From a virus: a DNA stretch of 64,000 bases. The notes beneath the pieces were generated by a model. That model had not been told where the DNA came from. It saw only the letters and a list, made by a program, of their open reading frames with translations, and made no database searches. A program made the translations under genes and the position numbers. Location: positions 9,566 to 73,565 of the IMG/VR virus record IMGVR_UViG_3300046698_000515. One strand, 5' to 3'. Below are positions 1 through 23,473 of this stretch, one piece after another (position 1 is the first letter of the stretch; every line of letters starts with the position of its first letter).

Positions 1-146
1 AATGTTTCAACTATATTGAGAAATGCCCCTATAGTCATTTGGGCTGAATCTGCTTTTGAATTTAGGGAGAGATATAAAGAGTGGTTTAAGTCTGTAAATA
101 ATATTTTACTTGATTTAAAAATTATTTGAGATATCATTTATACATT

Positions 147-404
147 ATGAAAATATTCTTATTTGTTCTTGGTGTTCTCCTTATTCTAGGAGGAATCTTT
201 GTTGGCCTCTATTTAGGGATTTGGGTTATGTTTATAGGTGGAATCGTTGCTCTTATAACAGACATAAAGGCAGCAAATATTATTCCACTACATATTGCAA
301 TTGATATTGCTCGTATTGTTTGTGCATCTGCTGTTGGTGCGTTTAGTTGGATGATATGTTTTACACTTGGAATGGGCTCAATTGCAATTGCTGCGAAACC
401 TTAA
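147..404 (+). CDS. small membrane protein (2-3 TM)
   Basis: Hydrophobic ORF; ATG at 147 preferred over the track's TTG start, just after a TTGATT...TATCAT promoter-like sequence. Confidence 0.7.
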   Translation: MKIFLFVLGVLLILGGIFVGLYLGIWVMFIGGIVALITDIKAANIIPLHIAIDIARIVCASAVGAFSWMICFTLGMGSIAIAAKP

Positions 405-405
405 T

Positions 406-1143
406 ATGAAAAACGTTTTTGTTATTCCAGTTCATAGTTTTGTTGATTTAATTACAAATAGTTCTTCTGAATTATTTGTTTGTAATGGTAATAAATCTAT
501 TGAAGCAATTAAAGAAGTTCTCATACAACTTACTAAGAATCATAATGAGCTTTCTGAAGATAAAATAAATCTTGATATTTTGTTTACTTCAGTGTTTAAA
601 GAGCCGGAAATTGTAGAATATTCTTTTGATTATTATTTGTTTCCTCAAAATCTTCGAGATGAGTATGAAAAATATCATCATGTTCCAGGAGAATATAATT
701 CGTTTTTTCCATATGAAGAAAGACAAGAGTACAAAGATTTAGAGTTTGCAGAACAGCAAATGGAACTTGAAGTAAATATTCATGAAAAGGATTTATACAA
801 AACAAATAAAATAGAGTATGAACGAAGATGGAATATAGTTTTTGAGAAACGTGATGAAATCTGGAAAGAGTGGAACCGAAAAAAATGTGCTTCCGTTTTT
901 GAATTATATAAACATTTTCTTATTAGTAATAATTTACCTGAATGGAAAGAAAAAGAATTTAATTTAAACAAATTATATGCAAATAAGAAAGAGTATAATT
1001 TCTTTCGCACCTGCTTAAGTTGGGGTATTAGTTGTAAGAAAGGAGATATCTTTCTTTACTCAGCAATCTATAATACTATTCCATATGAAATGATGGAAGC
1101 TATAACAGCATATTTAAATGCTCAAAGATTACATTTAGGATAA
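406..1143 (+). CDS. ITNSS-motif protein 1
   Basis: N-terminus MKNVFVIPVHSFVDLITNSSSELFV; start 406 chosen by alignment with the two paralogs. Confidence 0.85.
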   Translation: MKNVFVIPVHSFVDLITNSSSELFVCNGNKSIEAIKEVLIQLTKNHNELSEDKINLDILFTSVFKEPEIVEYSFDYYLFPQNLRDEYEKYHHVPGEYNSFFPYEERQEYKDLEFAEQQMELEVNIHEKDLYKTNKIEYERRWNIVFEKRDEIWKEWNRKKCASVFELYKHFLISNNLPEWKEKEFNLNKLYANKKEYNFFRTCLSWGISCKKGDIFLYSAIYNTIPYEMMEAITAYLNAQRLHLG

Positions 1144-1146
1144 TTT

Positions 1147-1470
1147 ATGACAAAAAAATACATAATAAAAATACACTCGTTCGTTGATTTAATCACGAAT
1201 TCATCAACTGAAATCTATGTTGCAGCAGGTGAACATACCGTTAAAGCTGTAAAGGAGATTATTAACAATATCCTTCTAATTGGAGGTAGTAAACTTATTG
1301 CTGACGATTTGTTTGAAATTTCTCTCAGTAATAGTGATGTTGGTGAATATTCATCAGTGGAATTAAATGTTAAAGCAAAAGATCAAAAATCTCCTGATGC
1401 CCTTACAGCAGCTAAACTATTAAGTGACTTAACTGGCTTATTTTCCATTGAAGCACAATATAATGGCTAA
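1147..1470 (+). CDS. ITNSS-motif protein 2
   Basis: IHSFVDLITNSSTEIYV N-terminal motif. Confidence 0.85.
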   Translation: MTKKYIIKIHSFVDLITNSSTEIYVAAGEHTVKAVKEIINNILLIGGSKLIADDLFEISLSNSDVGEYSSVELNVKAKDQKSPDALTAAKLLSDLTGLFSIEAQYNG

Positions 1471-1473
1471 TTT

Positions 1474-1842
1474 ATGAAACAATATATTATTCCAGTCCAT
1501 TCGTTTGTTGACCTAATTACTAACTCATCAACAGAAATCTATGTTTCACCTACAAATAAAACTGTAACTACATTAAAAGAAATAATTAATGAGATTCTTA
1601 GAATAGGTGGAAGTAAACAAACTTGTGATGATTTAGTTAATATCTCTCTTGAACAAGTCTGTGATTGTGCTGAATATCTAGAAGGTGAAGATCTTGAAGA
1701 ACACAATCCAAAAACATGTGATTGTGCGAAGACAAATCTAGTTATAACTGCTAAAGGTGAAGATAAAAAAGAATATAAAAAGTTAATAACAGCACTAAGT
1801 AAACTTATCAGTACTATTGAGTATGGTGAAAAAATAAATTGA
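1474..1842 (+). CDS. ITNSS-motif protein 3
   Basis: VHSFVDLITNSSTEIYV; also CDC...CDC pairs. Confidence 0.85.
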   Translation: MKQYIIPVHSFVDLITNSSTEIYVSPTNKTVTTLKEIINEILRIGGSKQTCDDLVNISLEQVCDCAEYLEGEDLEEHNPKTCDCAKTNLVITAKGEDKKEYKKLITALSKLISTIEYGEKIN

Positions 1843-1848
1843 TATTTT

Positions 1849-2706
1849 ATGCGCACTCGTCGAGAAGAATCTGCAAATTATTCCTCTGTATTTATCAATG
1901 GCAAAACGCTTAGGTTTTGCATTGATCAAAGTAAACCAATTACAGAATTAAAATTTCCGGAATTTTACGATGTGTCGTGCGGCAATAAATGTGAGACTGG
2001 AAAATGCTGTTACTGTTATGCTAGTGGAAATCCAAAAGGAACACATTATAACAATGTTGTTGAAAAAATAAAAACATATTTTGGTAAAATGTCTCTCAAT
2101 GAGCGACCTTATCAAGTTGCAATTGGTGGTCAACAAGAGCCTATTGAACATCCAGAATTTGAAAATGTATTAAAAGCTTTTTGTGAATTAGATATTGTTC
2201 CAAATATCACTACTAATGGAGTATTAGTTGATCAATCTATAGTTGACATCATTAAGAAATACTGTGGTGGTGTTGCAGTCACCCTACATCCACATCTTGA
2301 AGAACACTGGCGAAGAGCAATAAACATGTTCGTTCAAAACAACATTCGAACCAATATTCATATAATCGTATCAAACAATGAAACAATTGAAGCATTGAAG
2401 CGGATATACGCAGAGCTTAATGATAAAATTGAGTATTATGTGTTGCTTCCGTATAAACCAGTTGGCTATGCTAAAAATAAACCGATTGCGATTGACTATG
2501 ATAAATTAGAAGAATTTTTAGATTTGAATTTTAATAATGCAAATATTGCATTAGGGGCTAACTTCTATGAATTTTTGACTAATAAGAGGAAGTGGAATGT
2601 GTCATTATACCCACCTGAAATTATGTCTAAGTATTTGGTGCTTGATGATAATTTGAGTTTGTATAATAATAGTTTTGACATGAAATTAGTGACAGGAAAT
2701 ATATGA
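1849..2706 (+). CDS. radical SAM enzyme
   Basis: FPEFYDV then CGNKCETGKCCYCYA (expanded CxxxCxxC), IGGQQEP, TTNG motifs. Confidence 0.85.
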   Translation: MRTRREESANYSSVFINGKTLRFCIDQSKPITELKFPEFYDVSCGNKCETGKCCYCYASGNPKGTHYNNVVEKIKTYFGKMSLNERPYQVAIGGQQEPIEHPEFENVLKAFCELDIVPNITTNGVLVDQSIVDIIKKYCGGVAVTLHPHLEEHWRRAINMFVQNNIRTNIHIIVSNNETIEALKRIYAELNDKIEYYVLLPYKPVGYAKNKPIAIDYDKLEEFLDLNFNNANIALGANFYEFLTNKRKWNVSLYPPEIMSKYLVLDDNLSLYNNSFDMKLVTGNI

Positions 2707-2900
2707 ATTATACACTTAATGTTTGTGATAAAAATATTAAACCAAAACCAGGTTTTGGTAACTGTATTTTATCTCTTGAATTTCAGACTATAAGTCCATT
2801 TGAAGTTAAAAGGGTATTTGATACATTTTATCCAAAACCGAGATATAATGTTGAAATGGTAAAAGTTGATATGTCAAACAGACCATTAAATGGGTGGTAA
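2703..2900 (+). CDS. hypothetical protein
   Basis: ORF overlapping the rSAM stop (ATGA coupling). Confidence 0.55.
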   Translation: MNYTLNVCDKNIKPKPGFGNCILSLEFQTISPFEVKRVFDTFYPKPRYNVEMVKVDMSNRPLNGW

Positions 2901-2902
2901 TA

Positions 2903-3180
2903 ATGTGTATTTTCTGTAAGAGGGATGTTAAGACAAGAGAACATCATATAATTCCTCGTTGTAAAGGCGGAACTAAGACTGTTCCTGCTTGTGAGAATTG
3001 TGAGAATTTTATTCACGCGACATGGAGTCACTTACAATTACGTGATACGTATAAAACGTTGAAACAATTTTAACATCTCCTGAATTTCAAAAATTCTTGA
3101 AGTGGCTCTTAAAACAAAAAGAAACAACGTATTTCAGAAGTGATAAAAGTTGCAAACGTGATAAGTACAAATATCATTAA
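2903..3180 (+). pseudogene. small HNH (YisB-like) protein with a frameshift near 3050
   Basis: MCIFCKR..EHHIIPRCKGG..CENCENFIH in one frame; VETILTSPEFQKFLKWLLKQ continues in another frame. Confidence 0.65.
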
Positions 3181-3183
3181 GTT

Positions 3184-3459
3184 ATGGCAAAAAAAGCTAA
3201 AAAAGGAAAAGAGGAATTGCAGACAACTAATTATTGGATAAGTCATACTGGAATTAAAGTTCATGGTGTAATAACTGATTTGAATGAAGCCGAACTTCCA
3301 ACCAAGAGTTGGGTAACAGATAATCTTCCATTTGTTGTTCCTATTTCAAAAATTAATTTTCTACAAAGGTGTTCCGTTTCTATTTGTACTTACCCTATTG
3401 AAATTCTTTCAACTGATTCGTTACGAAATTTTCTGCTAAAAATTCTTAATACACCATGA
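3184..3459 (+). CDS. hypothetical protein
   Basis: Tightly packed ORF in + strand operon. Confidence 0.6.
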   Translation: MAKKAKKGKEELQTTNYWISHTGIKVHGVITDLNEAELPTKSWVTDNLPFVVPISKINFLQRCSVSICTYPIEILSTDSLRNFLLKILNTP

Positions 3460-3671
3460 AAACACCACAAAATGGAGACAAGTTAAGTAGGGAAGAAGTA
3501 TTTAATTGGATTATAAAAAATCTAAATAAAGCAAATACAAATAGTGAAAATGGCTACGATGAATTATGTGATTTATTTGAAGCTAGTTTTAGTTATTCCA
3601 ATGACGTTAAAATTAGGTATTCTGGACCAAATAAAATATTTGAAGTTTATGAAAATACAAATTATAATTAA
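3456..3671 (+). CDS. hypothetical protein
   Basis: Translationally coupled ORF. Confidence 0.6.
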   Translation: MKTPQNGDKLSREEVFNWIIKNLNKANTNSENGYDELCDLFEASFSYSNDVKIRYSGPNKIFEVYENTNYN

Positions 3672-3677
3672 CACACT

Positions 3678-3986
3678 ATGAATATTGAAGAAATTAATGC
3701 ATTACTAACTAGTGAAAAACTATATTGTGGAAGACTAATTTCAGCACATAAAACTAGTCCTAAAGGCCACGTTTGTGTGTTCAACGCAAACATTATAACT
3801 GAGTCAGCAGGTAAGATTTGGTTTGGTGATTTAGATTTAACAAAAGAAGGAATTCTTCTTAAACAAATTTCAGAAGTGATTGGTGAACCATTATATGTTT
3901 TGAGAGAAATGGATGCTCGGTTTGGAACTGAAGAAAAATCCAGTTTGGAACTAATCAAAAAAGCAGTTTGGTCAACAAAGGAATAA
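3678..3986 (+). CDS. hypothetical phage protein
   Basis: VFNANI..KIWFGDLDL..LYVLREMDARF, packed ORF. Confidence 0.7.
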   Translation: MNIEEINALLTSEKLYCGRLISAHKTSPKGHVCVFNANIITESAGKIWFGDLDLTKEGILLKQISEVIGEPLYVLREMDARFGTEEKSSLELIKKAVWSTKE

Positions 3987-3987
3987 T

Positions 3988-4263
3988 ATGATAAACCAAA
4001 AAGGTGTGCCTGCATTTCCGAGAAGCGTTAGGAAATACTCTGCATTTCCGAAAAAACGTTCAGTACACCATAGATTTGATGTAGATAATTTAATACATGA
4101 TCCTCCTCAAGATGGAATGGATTTACGTGATTGGTTTGCTGGTTATGCAACTGAACAAGATACGTACCGCTGGCAAACAGAGGGATTAACTATAGCGGTA
4201 ACAAGAGAAGCTGCCAAATACCGATATGCTGATGCTATGATTGCTGAACGAGAAAGGAAATAA
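3988..4263 (+). CDS. phage protein, AFP...GMDLRDWFA...AY.YADAM type
   Basis: Recognisable small phage protein motifs. Confidence 0.7.
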   Translation: MINQKGVPAFPRSVRKYSAFPKKRSVHHRFDVDNLIHDPPQDGMDLRDWFAGYATEQDTYRWQTEGLTIAVTREAAKYRYADAMIAERERK

Positions 4264-4264
4264 T

Positions 4265-4483
4265 ATGGGTTGTAATAATTATACAATTGAATGTCCAAAA
4301 TGTAAGGCTGTAATAGAAGCAGACGTTGACATTTCTGAGCACATAGTTGATTGGGCTGAGGAGTGTGAAGAGTGTGGTTATAAATTCACTCAAGATGAAG
4401 TGTTAAAAATTTATGATGATGCTCTCACTGATTGTTTGTCAAGTATGATTGATCATGCTCATGAAATGTCTAAAGATCGTTAA
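4265..4483 (+). CDS. zinc-ribbon protein
   Basis: CPKC...CEECG; ATG at 4265. Confidence 0.65.
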   Translation: MGCNNYTIECPKCKAVIEADVDISEHIVDWAEECEECGYKFTQDEVLKIYDDALTDCLSSMIDHAHEMSKDR

Positions 4484-4494
4484 GAATAAAATTT

Positions 4495-4704
4495 ATGAAA
4501 AACATTAAAAACACCACATTAGTATTATTAACTATTATGATAGTTATTATAGGAGTAGTTGGAACGGGTTGTGAGGTAGTTGCTAATCCATATCCTCAAC
4601 CATATTATTCTAATTATTATCCATACAATTACTACCCTTATTACTACTATCCTCCTGTTTCAGTTAGGATTGATGGTGGATATCACGGCGGTTGGCGTCG
4701 CTAA
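4495..4704 (+). CDS. small lipoprotein with Tyr/Pro-rich tail
   Basis: Signal peptide ending GTG-C, then YYP repeats. Confidence 0.6.
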   Translation: MKNIKNTTLVLLTIMIVIIGVVGTGCEVVANPYPQPYYSNYYPYNYYPYYYYPPVSVRIDGGYHGGWRR

Positions 4705-5129
4705 AACAAATGCAAAATTCAAATGATCCATTACAAACAGTAGTTGAATCTTTTAAAAAGCTTGGTTGGATATCTCAAATTGAGCGTCTAGGTAGAGATG
4801 GTTTTGCAGTTAAAGATAGTGATAATAATGAAAAATTTGATGTTTATTTTTATCGTGTTGGTAAACATCTTTCTCTTGAAGGTAAAGAAATAGCTGCAGC
4901 TATACAATTTAGCGTTTATGTTGTAATGCCTTGGAGCGAACAAATCAAAAATAACGAATTCAATATTCCTATTGATGATGTACCTATTGATAGTAATTTA
5001 GATGAACACGTTCAAACAATTGTTGATCAAATAACAGCTTTTGTTCTTCCAGAACGTCCTACACCTTTAGAAGTTGAAAATTATAAATTTGACAAAAAAG
5101 CAGATCAAAAATATGATTTGTCTATATAA
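4692..5129 (+). CDS. hypothetical protein
   Basis: 145-aa ORF. Confidence 0.6.
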   Translation: MASLKQMQNSNDPLQTVVESFKKLGWISQIERLGRDGFAVKDSDNNEKFDVYFYRVGKHLSLEGKEIAAAIQFSVYVVMPWSEQIKNNEFNIPIDDVPIDSNLDEHVQTIVDQITAFVLPERPTPLEVENYKFDKKADQKYDLSI

Positions 5130-5138
5130 AAGATTATC

Positions 5139-5167
5139 TTGATCTTTATACAATTTGTAGCTATAAT
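5139..5167 (+). promoter_or_regulatory. sigma70-type early promoter (leaderless)
   Basis: TTGATC-17 nt-TATAAT; ATG 6 nt after the -10. Confidence 0.7.
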
Positions 5168-5173
5168 TCTTAT

Positions 5174-5449
5174 ATGGAAATAGCATACAAAGAAAATGAT
5201 ACGGTATATTTTGTTATCCTTATAAAAGGTAGAGCATCTTTACAAGGACAAGTATTCCGAAAGCCTTACTTTCTTGCTGTTGAAGGAAAAGTTGCATCAA
5301 TTTATAAACCCACTAAAGTTAGTATTCCATTATTATCAATACAGGTTCCAAAATGGCCATTAAGATATTTGATTGAACCTGAACATTGTTTTAAAACACA
5401 AGAAGATGCTAATAAGGTAGCAACCGAAAAAACGGCTAAATTAGGTTAA
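5174..5449 (+). CDS. hypothetical protein
   Basis: ORF directly after promoter. Confidence 0.65.
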   Translation: MEIAYKENDTVYFVILIKGRASLQGQVFRKPYFLAVEGKVASIYKPTKVSIPLLSIQVPKWPLRYLIEPEHCFKTQEDANKVATEKTAKLG

Positions 5450-5453
5450 TTTT

Positions 5454-5639
5454 ATGAATAAAGAAATAATGAAAAAAGCTGGATTTAGTGAACACGTTAA
5501 ACTAGTTGAAGAAGCGTGTTGTCCATTTTGTGGAACAAACATTATTCTTGAAGAATTTCGCGATGAAATTTCACGTAGTGAATTTAAGATTAGTGGTTTA
5601 TGCCAAAAGTGTCAAGATAAAGCATTTGGTACTTATTAG
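5454..5639 (+). CDS. small zinc-binding protein
   Basis: CPFCG...EFRDEIS..EFKISGLCQKCQD. Confidence 0.7.
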   Translation: MNKEIMKKAGFSEHVKLVEEACCPFCGTNIILEEFRDEISRSEFKISGLCQKCQDKAFGTY

Positions 5640-6061
5640 TCGTCAGCAGTAAGGTACTTTTGAGCTCCACCTAAATTACCAAGTGCAAGACGAGGATCTT
5701 CTTCATGTAAATCATCAAACTCATTAATAGGATGGTAAGTTTTACGTTTATCATCCCATTTAAAGTTGGCAGAAACAATATAAGCATCTTCTGTAGTTGT
5801 TACATCAGGATTATCAATACTGATTTGCATAGTTAAATTAGGATCATTTTCACATGCAGCTTTTACTACATTACCCATTCTACCAATAATTCTATAGACA
5901 ACATTTGTTTCGCCTGAATGAGGACCACCTTCGTAAATTTCTTTAACTTTAATAATAGTAGGAAGTACTGTAGTACCTTCTCCGTATGTTTCCGTTAATA
6001 AAATAGAGGGTTTAACATTAACATATGCTTTTGATAAACCTTTGATATCACTATTAGTCAT
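5636..6061 (-). CDS. late protein, possible head-targeted protein
   Basis: TATAAATA at 6067-6074 (-) just upstream; leader MTNSDIKGLSKAY..LLTE. Confidence 0.65.
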   Translation of the reverse strand: MTNSDIKGLSKAYVNVKPSILLTETYGEGTTVLPTIIKVKEIYEGGPHSGETNVVYRIIGRMGNVVKAACENDPNLTMQISIDNPDVTTTEDAYIVSANFKWDDKRKTYHPINEFDDLHEEDPRLALGNLGGAQKYLTADD

Positions 6062-9457: not shown

Positions 9458-9750
9458 TGAAATTACCAATGGATTTAACAGATAAAAAGTTAGATCTCAC
9501 TCAGTGTGATCCACCAGATAAGGTATTAGACATCTTAAACGAAGTGATGGTAGGCCAAAAAACCTGCAGAAAAGCGTGGCATGACATTGATGCAGTATAT
9601 GCTTTTTACAAAGCAAATGATCTCGAAGCAATTTTTTGTGTTGCCTTATTAAACGCGTTAGATACACGTCAAGTACAAAAAGTGTTAGAATGCTATATTA
9701 AATTGAGAGATGATGCACACAACACACTTGTTTCAATAGGAAGAAGATAA
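9457..9750 (+). CDS. hypothetical protein
   Basis: TAATG coupling at 9457. Confidence 0.6.
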   Translation: MKLPMDLTDKKLDLTQCDPPDKVLDILNEVMVGQKTCRKAWHDIDAVYAFYKANDLEAIFCVALLNALDTRQVQKVLECYIKLRDDAHNTLVSIGRR

Positions 9751-23287: not shown

Positions 23288-23379
23288 ACGTGATGTATAT
23301 TGTTGTGAAAATGAGTCTGTATAGTTTAGTGCATTTCACAGTGTGCTCCGCCATTGGGCTCATATTGAAGTAGTTAGTA

Positions 23380-23451
23380 AGGATTATGGTGCAATGGTCA
23401 GACACAGCGGCTCCCAAGTCGCTTGTCCAAGTTCGAGTCTTGGTAATTTTT
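23380..23451 (+). tRNA. tRNA-like gene with 8-nt anticodon loop (CTCCCAAG)
   Basis: AGCGG/TCGCT stem, CCAAG-TTCGAGT-CTTGG T-arm. Confidence 0.5.
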
Positions 23452-23473
23452 GCTAACTACGGATTTTATTTTT

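Follow-up and report, generated by a model that had tools for sequence, protein, structure and literature searches.

A four-gene cluster in an uncultured phage

The subject of this study is a cluster of four genes at positions 406–2706 of a 64,000-nucleotide stretch of viral DNA (positions 9,566 to 73,565 of IMG/VR record IMGVR_UViG_3300046698_000515; the whole stretch is hereafter called the window). Three open reading frames (ORFs) encoding small proteins with a shared N-terminal motif, which contains the residues T-N-S-S, lie head to tail on the + strand and are followed by a gene for a radical S-adenosylmethionine (SAM) enzyme (rSAM). The evidence for this module is computational throughout. 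The features discussed below are as follows.

406–1143, + strand: motif protein 1, 'HLG' subfamily, 245 aa; N-terminal motif and helix, long variable insert, conserved C-terminal module
430–480, + strand: motif segment of protein 1, residues 9–25 (V-H-S-F-V-D-L-I-T-N-S-S-S-E-L-F-V), from the alignment
1147–1470, + strand: motif protein 2, short subfamily, 107 aa; partner chain in the complex prediction
1171–1221, + strand: motif segment of protein 2, residues 9–25; the predicted rSAM interface comprises residues 7–31
1474–1842, + strand: motif protein 3, short subfamily, 122 aa, with a Cys/acidic-rich insert; family profile E 7.5e-41
1495–1545, + strand: motif segment of protein 3, residues 8–24, from the alignment
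1849–2706, + strand: radical SAM enzyme, 285 aa, without a SPASM/twitch domain; PF04055 E 3.9e-8, AlphaFold2 (AF2) pLDDT 91.2, Foldseek match to SuiB E 4.2e-11
1894–1920, + strand: rSAM residues 16–24, final strand of the three-stranded sheet at the N terminus, with K19, T20 and R22 conserved; predicted to pair with strand 8–14 of the putative substrate
1990–2016, + strand: rSAM cluster cysteines C48, C53 and C56 (CX4CX2C, then conserved Y57), from conservation in homologues

The motif genes are separated from each other by 3 and 3 nt, the third motif gene from the rSAM gene by 6 nt, and the first from an ORF at 126–404 by 1 nt. Since the junctions measure only 1–6 nt and no terminator-like site was found between 406 and 2706, the cluster is read as an operon. 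The promoter scan was uninformative, with 13 sigma-70-like sites compared with 18.6 in shuffled sequences. In a peat metatranscriptome library, a 178-nt contig matches positions 2290–2467, inside the rSAM gene, with one mismatch; this match represents presence in an RNA library and is no proof of transcription, and the uncovered parts carry no information.

The window is part of a viral contig of 73.5 kb, with an estimated completeness of 34%, that encodes ribonucleotide reductase, baseplate, portal and adaptor genes as well as ten tRNA genes; the G+C content of the window is ~30%. The DNA belongs to a tailed phage that is large and uncultured. Among cultured phages, even the best DNA matches covered no more than 3% of the initial 8 kb. 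Near-identical DNA was found in peat metagenome runs, at least 94% of the sampled words being present in three runs, two of which may be the source itself; runs with small word shares (0.05–0.11) were not used for assigning a habitat.

The first-pass annotation of this DNA had described three ORFs of unequal length that share an N-terminal motif and a helix and diverge afterwards, and our alignment agrees with that description. The residues H10, S11, F12, V13, D14, L15, I16, T17, N18, S19, S20, E22 and V25 are invariant among the three proteins, while the full-length identity of proteins 2 and 3 to protein 1 is only 32% and 31%, respectively. The codons for Ser and other motif residues differ synonymously among the three gene copies, so the segment they share does not stem from a recent DNA duplication or gene conversion; the genes are old paralogues maintained by protein-level selection. 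ORF2 (1147–1470) and ORF3 (1474–1842) are homologous from end to end. ORF1 (406–1143; 245 aa from its ATG, or 258 aa from an upstream TTG at 367) resembles them only in the motif and the helix after it. The C-terminal module of ORF1 is distinct and conserved (G213, D222-N223, P226, H243 and G245) and ends in H-L-G, G245 being the last residue. A family profile search of the 73.5-kb contig returned exactly three matches, namely the three genes of the window.

The AF2 monomer of the 107-aa protein reached a pLDDT of 70.4, and only an alpha-beta-beta-alpha core (residues 29–98) was confident. Residues 1–27, the most conserved part of the protein, and the C-terminal tail fell below 50, which for the conserved segment is as expected if it docks elsewhere. 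The model gave no Foldseek match at E ≤ 0.001 in either the PDB or BFVD, and the weaker rows (dsRBD, OsmC, V-ATPase) were dismissed as noise.

A viral protein family linked to the enzyme gene

No model of Pfam, PHROGs, NCBIfam or PADLOC matched the motif proteins; the best rows, at E 0.019–0.33, belonged to unrelated families and were rejected. By word-indexed search, 82 metagenomic relatives were retrieved for the 107-aa protein and 144 for the 245-aa protein, and none of these carried a Pfam domain or a name beyond 'hypothetical protein'. The exhaustive profile search retrieved 2150 cluster representatives (50% identity) at E ≤ 0.001, including 991 at E ≤ 1e-10; the best 150 matches were all 96–195 aa in length, and the match started within ten N-terminal residues in nearly all of them. 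The ESM Atlas neighbours of the motif protein were 92–100% viral, and the search with the 107-aa protein met solely unnamed viral clusters. A pattern scan of 185,579 prokaryote genomes yielded only 5 loci, all on short contigs of metagenome-assembled genomes (MAGs), and no match at E ≤ 1e-3 was obtained among 50,697 cultured-phage records. The motif family is large and essentially viral, and the module was seen in phage contigs ranging from ~5-kb fragments up to 508 kb. Full-text literature searches outside subscription journals found no paper describing the motif, the family or the module.

The consensus in 179 unique sequences from the viral loci is h-x-h-(H/Q)-S-x-x-D-h-(I/V)-T-N-S-S-(S/T)-E-h-(F/Y), and in 139 of 227 ORFs the motif lies 13–15 residues from the start. 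Further clades have V, T, D or Q in place of the Glu, which leaves (I/V)-T-N-S-S as the truly constant core. The proteins are acidic (median pI 4.5, median net charge -11, pI <5.5 in 96%), and a signal peptide or hydrophobic segment was detected in none of the 179. In the general architecture of the family, the motif is followed by one helix, a variable and often acidic insert, and a strand-helix-strand unit. The HLG subfamily, to which ORF 406–1143 belongs, carries the conserved C-terminal module S-x-x-D-N-S/T-I-P-Y ... H-L-G as its last residues, and most rSAM-bearing loci have a member ending in H-(L/I/A)-G, usually as the first gene of the array. In hhalign, convincing homology between the short and HLG families was limited to the first ~50 residues, in a comparison confounded by the inclusion of the 245-aa protein of the window in one alignment (A2). 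No motif-family relative of 430–2000 aa was found, which is weak evidence against fusions by the search tool's own account, and relatives of 134–429 aa had no Pfam domain; lengths of 188–430 aa were searched only via the HLG query.

The linkage of the two genes was examined from both sides. The scan of viral sequences seeded with the motif found 146 relatives, of which 80 loci were kept, and that seeded with the rSAM found 221 relatives, of which 80 loci were likewise kept and searched for motif ORFs in 5-kb flanks. A same-strand rSAM homologue was present in 76 of the 80 motif-seeded loci, usually right after 1–7 motif genes, and motif-family ORFs were present in 79 of the 80 rSAM-seeded loci. 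Because the two sets share contigs, lineages were defined by clustering the 152 full-length enzymes at 70% identity; a motif gene lies within 3 kb on the same strand in 52 of the resulting 54; both genes were also present in all five MAG loci. The co-occurrence suggested by the first-pass annotation is therefore observed in both directions, and motif proteins are not commonly found without the enzyme: among the four motif-seeded loci without an rSAM gene, one is a 305-kb contig that carries the enzyme ~100 kb away, and the others are contigs only 14–26% complete. The linkage persists in nine loci where the motif genes lie downstream of the rSAM gene (L132, L135, L139–L141, L147, L157, L162 and L163).

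When one locus per lineage was taken for gene clustering, the recurrent families were the rSAM (54 lineages) and the motif family (52); other families occurred in at most 6 lineages, apart from a cluster in 20 lineages that, as judged by the coordinates of one example member, is a shadow ORF lying antisense within the rSAM gene. No protease, transporter, reductase, immunity gene or second tailoring enzyme was linked to the module in the 54 lineages. The module is a self-contained gene pair.

As one enzyme gene faces 1–7 motif genes in each locus, the motif proteins fit substrates better than subunits. We consider it reasonably probable that one phage rSAM installs a site-specific radical modification on the T-N-S-S loop of several substrate proteins. 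The same gene order can be viewed as a pathway for a peptide that is made on the ribosome and modified after translation (RiPP), in which the N-terminal segment would be a core peptide that is modified, cut and released, and the remainder a follower or recognition domain. The tandem precursor-like genes upstream of an enzyme related to SuiB and SkfB, together with the position of the motif near the N terminus, are consistent with such a pathway. Against it stand the missing protease, transporter and immunity gene, the size of the proteins (100–280 aa, with a confidently folded core), the lack of signal peptides or hydrophobic segments, and the pattern of conservation, since an invariant 'core' with a variable 'follower' is the reverse of RiPP logic; we regard this pathway as very unlikely. 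The analogy with RiPP maturases drawn in the first-pass annotation is retained for the enzyme, whose nearest folds are peptide-modifying, and does not extend to the putative substrates, which are folded, keep the loop invariant and have no linked protease or exporter. By analogy, the system looks more like protein maturation, as in the sulfatase, glycyl-radical activase and HxsA systems, than like peptide natural-product synthesis.

Several other features were observed around the cluster. Judged by its hydrophobic sequence, the 92-aa product of the ORF at 126–404 resembles a small multi-pass membrane protein; no family matched it, and other lineages do not keep it beside the module. Two genes past the rSAM, at 2894–3073, a 59-aa ORF gave a match to an HNH-endonuclease-like zinc finger (HNH_5 E 7.6e-6, slightly under the Pfam cut-off; phrog_7370 E 5.5e-4). 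At 23379–23453, within the ten-tRNA cluster (18.4–30.1 kb), ARAGORN placed a tRNA whose anticodon has four bases (ccca) and to which no amino acid was assigned; this could be a frameshift-suppressor-like tRNA or a miscall. Upstream of the window, positions 1–6000 of the contig have a G+C content of 41–47%, compared with 28–31% in the next 6.5 kb, and this shift near contig position 6000 could represent a mosaic region or a chimeric assembly join.

The radical SAM enzyme and its predicted complex

The enzyme gene directly follows the motif genes, as had been noticed at first sight, and its product scores above the gathering cut-off of PF04055 (34.1 bits compared with 29.5). It has the three-Cys motif followed by the aromatic Y57, all four residues being invariant in 30–54 homologues, and a partial TIM barrel, as is characteristic of the radical SAM superfamily. 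The AF2 model (pTM 0.89) comprises an N-terminal three-stranded sheet (strands 2–6, 11–16 and 19–23), a six-unit beta/alpha partial barrel and a Cys-free C-terminal cap. Foldseek returned 117 PDB matches at E ≤ 0.001, and the named top matches listed were radical SAM enzymes. The nearest folds were SuiB (TMq 0.64) and SkfB (E 4.3e-9), followed at lower ranks by viperin (3e-7), the anaerobic sulfatase-maturating enzyme (anSME; 1.7e-6), EpeE (3.5e-6) and the pyruvate formate-lyase activating enzyme (PFL-AE; 1e-5); DesII, BtrN and CteB were also matched. The best NCBIfam matches were SPASM-type maturases, all far under their cut-offs, the models for the tungsten-cofactor maturase, WgkB, NirJ and the KxxxW maturase reaching 20–31 bits compared with cut-offs of 380–650.

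The first-pass annotation had read the string C-GNK-C-ETGK-C-C-Y-C as an expanded cluster motif. The string is present, yet that reading went too far: across 54 unique homologues only the cluster cysteines C48, C53 and C56 are conserved, together with Y57, whereas C44 (1978–1980) is Ile in 81% of homologues and C54 is Pro in 44%. The spacing is CX4CX2C in the window and four close relatives and the canonical CX3CX2C in most homologues, so the first spacer of the cluster is variable in this clade, and the aligned sequences give no sign of an extra cluster. No conserved Cys was found outside the SAM cluster among the homologues; the conserved C-terminal region is Cys-free, and the chain ends at residue 285. 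Neither a SPASM domain (PF13186) nor a RiPP recognition element (RRE)/PqqD domain, in Pfam or NCBIfam, was matched. The invariant tyrosines of the enzyme are Y11, Y57 and Y196. As the nearest homologue in cultured phages (below) is an rSAM-SPASM protein, the simplest history would be that the SPASM domain was lost inside a phage clade whose enzymes modify peptides or proteins.

In several lineages, the rSAM gene is split by an insert of 1.1–1.5 kb (L072:7643-9793 and L034:6309-8458; also L035, L043, L064, L022 and L171). The insert of L072 encodes a 320-aa GIY-YIG + NUMOD3 homing endonuclease, and that of L034 falls exactly within the G-G-E SAM-binding motif and holds only a NUMOD3 remnant. 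A group I intron was considered for these inserts and rejected, as Rfam gave no match at the gathering threshold or, for L034, at E ≤ 0.1.

The complex of the rSAM with the 107-aa motif protein was predicted by folding the two chains together with a 4Fe-4S cluster and SAM, alongside three control pairings. The ipSAE interface score was 0.81, 0.81 and 0.82 for the complex, compared with 0.02, 0.04 and 0.00 for the controls; at least 91% of the contacts were common to the runs, and the pLDDT of the partner was 66–67, the minimum wanted being 65. The predicted interface on the partner consists of residues 7–31 and parts of the core (33–41, 62, 69–71 and 95–97), and that on the enzyme of residues 16–24 and the barrel-lining segments 89–94, 119–121, 140–143, 167–171, 195–200 and 228–260. 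The lowest expected error was predicted between residues 8–14 of the putative substrate and 18–24 of the enzyme, strand on strand. The next-best predicted contacts joined I16 with Q89, A91 and N119, and D14 with Y196, enzyme residues that would be at the ends of the SAM-binding barrel strands of this superfamily. The modelling that the first-pass annotation had called for thus places the motif inside the active-site barrel. The model supports binding of the T-N-S-S loop in that barrel; that docking means catalysis is what we infer from it, as are the residue attacked and the product formed.

The shared N terminus could alternatively be a sorting, assembly or capsid-targeting tag, or an oligomerisation strand, with the rSAM acting elsewhere. 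Phage capsid-targeting sequences, such as those of the T4 internal proteins, combine a conserved N-terminal tag with divergent bodies, a pattern that the motif proteins match, and the N- and C-terminal strands that AF2 leaves unplaced in the monomer could reflect oligomerisation. However, a tag of this kind leaves unexplained both the travel of the motif genes with one rSAM clade in nearly all lineages despite changes of gene order and the specific docking in the face of near-zero controls (0.00–0.04), and we consider it extremely unlikely.

Proposed protein maturation and its parallels

Based on these data, the maturation of the motif proteins by the enzyme may be envisaged as follows. The three small acidic cytoplasmic proteins would be the substrates of the downstream rSAM. 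Strand 1 of the substrate (residues ~8–14) would dock on the conserved N-terminal beta-sheet of the enzyme by strand augmentation, threading the invariant loop (D-x-I/V-T-N-S-S) into the partial TIM barrel beside SAM and the [4Fe-4S] cluster. The 5'-deoxyadenosyl radical would then take a hydrogen from one of the residues in the T-N-S-S loop, leading to a site-specific modification. Since the loop is invariant while the bodies diversify, the modification probably gives the paralogues a functional group that every one of them requires. The proposal of the first-pass annotation, that a single maturase acts on a family of substrates tagged with the motif, is supported by the two-way co-occurrence, the peptide-modifying rSAM folds and the controlled complex prediction.

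Several known chemistries do not agree with the motif or the enzyme. Glycyl-radical chemistry was excluded by the lack of a conserved Gly in the motif, and thioether or sactionine crosslinks by its lack of Cys; a two-electron oxidation of the anSME type is unlikely for an enzyme without an auxiliary cluster, as is Cys-dependent epimerisation for one without a conserved free Cys. The likeliest chemistries are those that need neither an auxiliary cluster nor a free Cys, since the enzyme has neither. The candidates would be a redox-neutral or reductive radical change on Ser, Thr or Asn (elimination/dehydration or rearrangement), an epimerisation with a non-Cys hydrogen donor, for which the invariant tyrosines would be candidates, and, by analogy, an oxidation like that of DesII, in which the electron is returned to the SAM cluster.

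A number of points weigh against this interpretation. Without an auxiliary cluster, the best-precedented chemistries on proteins and peptides drop out, leaving the proposed reaction without a close precedent. Among complexes of known structure 58 of 80 reached the ipSAE mark, as did 2 of 110 mismatched pairs; these counts speak for the docking and hold only roughly here, as the calibration used neither ligands nor custom alignments. The 60-residue interface of the enzyme contains 31 of its 59 conserved positions (odds ratio 7.5, p 7e-10) and the 38-residue interface of the partner 13 of 19 (p 0.0014), an enrichment that speaks for the predicted docking and yet partly restates the placement of the motif in an active site, which is conserved in any rSAM. 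Covariation of substrate positions 10 and 22 with the enzyme columns showed no enrichment at the interface among the 54 lineage representatives (2 of the top 20 columns per test compared with ~4 expected), and clade signal dominates. Two enzyme lineages, L125 and L086/L172 (a jumbo-phage copy), have no nearby motif gene.

Two observations adjoin these points. In L125 (2847-5846), two other genes precede the rSAM, one for a second rSAM-like protein of 320 aa (C-x3-C-x2-C) and one for a PP-loop-type protein of 261 aa (S-G-G-K motif), an arrangement suggesting that this enzyme has a different partner set. A pairing of a 'D-N' motif with an 'R-Q' enzyme, seen in just 4–5 loci with similar enzyme segments and possibly from one clade, was not counted.

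The data may also be explained if the motif proteins are interchangeable subunits or adaptors, whose N-terminal peptide plugs or completes the rSAM site and each of which directs the enzyme elsewhere, the real substrate being a small molecule, nucleotide, nucleic acid or host protein. A stable partner fits the linkage and docking data as well as a substrate does; the predicted contacts include the folded core of the partner, and the invariant loop could provide catalytic or binding residues. Nevertheless, a single enzyme gene faces up to seven motif genes, any candidate for a third component is linked in at most 6 of the 54 lineages, the predicted loop fills the barrel where a substrate must sit, and the closest folds act on a peptide bound at that position, so that we judge the adaptor explanation unlikely. 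Modification of the motif proteins themselves remains the interpretation we prefer.

The module represents a new, large, virus-restricted enzyme-substrate family, in which the minimal enzyme is unusual and the target motif undescribed, while the general kind of process, rSAM protein maturation, is known. To our knowledge, rSAM maturation of whole proteins is limited to a few systems, namely sulfatases, glycyl-radical enzymes, some cofactor-bearing enzymes and, lately, HxsA, and the module would add a large virus-restricted case. Its small size, with a 285-aa enzyme and a tag of ~20 residues, makes the chemistry directly testable, and the defined pair of tag and enzyme could serve protein engineering. 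The module also points to a whole class of acidic, diversifying proteins in large phages for which activation would be required.

Several features fit takeover or counter-defence effectors, as the paralogues are acidic, cytoplasmic and diversifying and are found among the many small unassigned ORFs of large phages. A more tentative extension, which we hold to be possible and on balance improbable, is that the T-N-S-S loop is turned into a protein-derived reactive group or cofactor (e.g. a dehydro-, keto/aldehyde- or D-residue) by a new protein chemistry without auxiliary clusters, giving phage-exclusive 'activated' acidic effectors whose hypervariable inserts hit different host targets. If true, the module would mirror, on the side of the phage, the rSAM-matured defence effectors of bacteria, HxsA among them.

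Among known systems, the closest structural neighbours of the phage enzyme are SuiB/SuiA (streptide) and SkfB/SkfA (5v1q/5v1s/5v1t and 6efn; TMq 0.61–0.68), in which the substrate peptide likewise goes into the barrel and the substrate genes are typically in tandem or adjacent. Sequence identity to them is only 14–19%, and the phage enzyme, at 285 aa, differs in having no SPASM/twitch domain, extra conserved Cys or detected RRE; unlike in RRE-bearing maturases, its N-terminal three-stranded sheet is predicted to take the substrate strand instead. The putative phage substrates, moreover, are folded and keep their target loop invariant, and their motif offers neither Cys nor Lys-Trp nor a comparable pair for a crosslink.

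The anSME (4k36-4k39) resembles the proposed system in that an rSAM modifies a Ser or Cys in a short invariant N-terminal motif of a folded protein, generating a catalytic group, and in that one maturase serves many tagged substrates. However, the sulfatase motif, (C/S)-x-P-x-R, is absent from the phage motif, (H/Q)-S-x-x-D-x-(I/V)-T-N-S-S; the anSME needs two auxiliary clusters that the phage enzyme does not have, and the phage substrates match neither a sulfatase nor any other Pfam family. The PFL-AE (3c8f) is, like the phage enzyme, a small rSAM without auxiliary clusters, and a loop of its folded protein substrate leaves its resting place to enter the barrel. It is a weaker structural match (rank 49), and glycyl-radical substrates carry a conserved Gly in R-V-x-G-aromatic, whereas the phage motif does not: in the 179 unique sequences, none of the 30 positions centred on the motif has Gly as one of its commonest residues.

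Prokaryotic viperin (pVip) was rejected as an identity of the enzyme, since NF038283 gave 20.4 bits compared with a cut-off of 180 and viperins rank under SuiB and SkfB structurally; the PADLOC match to pVip (E 2.7e-7) covers only the generic rSAM core, residues 52–143. The nearest homologue in cultured phages is the rSAM-SPASM protein of coliphages of the RB16, RB43 and Slopekvirus type (phrog_7293), at 27% identity (E 3e-14) across 234 aligned positions that take in the N-terminal strands. Its gene is also directly downstream of two small paralogous ORFs, although the protein differs in its length of 384 aa, its Cys-rich SPASM-like C terminus and its CX7CX2C spacing. In phage RB16 (L081, 4192-6086), these ORFs encode 66 and 68 aa and are 31% identical (E 8e-8), and the three genes may form an analogous maturase-substrate pair in a phage growing on E. 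coli.

The HXS antiphage system, in which HxsB and HxsC mature the effector HxsA (Nat Commun 2026, PMC13128918), is the closest conceptual parallel to the phage module. Both would involve a full-length protein effector in phage-bacterium conflict that receives a site-specific modification from an rSAM. HXS acts on the bacterial side and comprises two rSAMs and HxsD, His-Xaa-Ser repeats and a periplasmic effector (PMC13128918). The phage locus, in contrast, has one rSAM gene, no HxS repeats and an unrelated motif, and none of the 12 NCBIfam matches of its enzyme at E ≤ 1 is an Hxs model.

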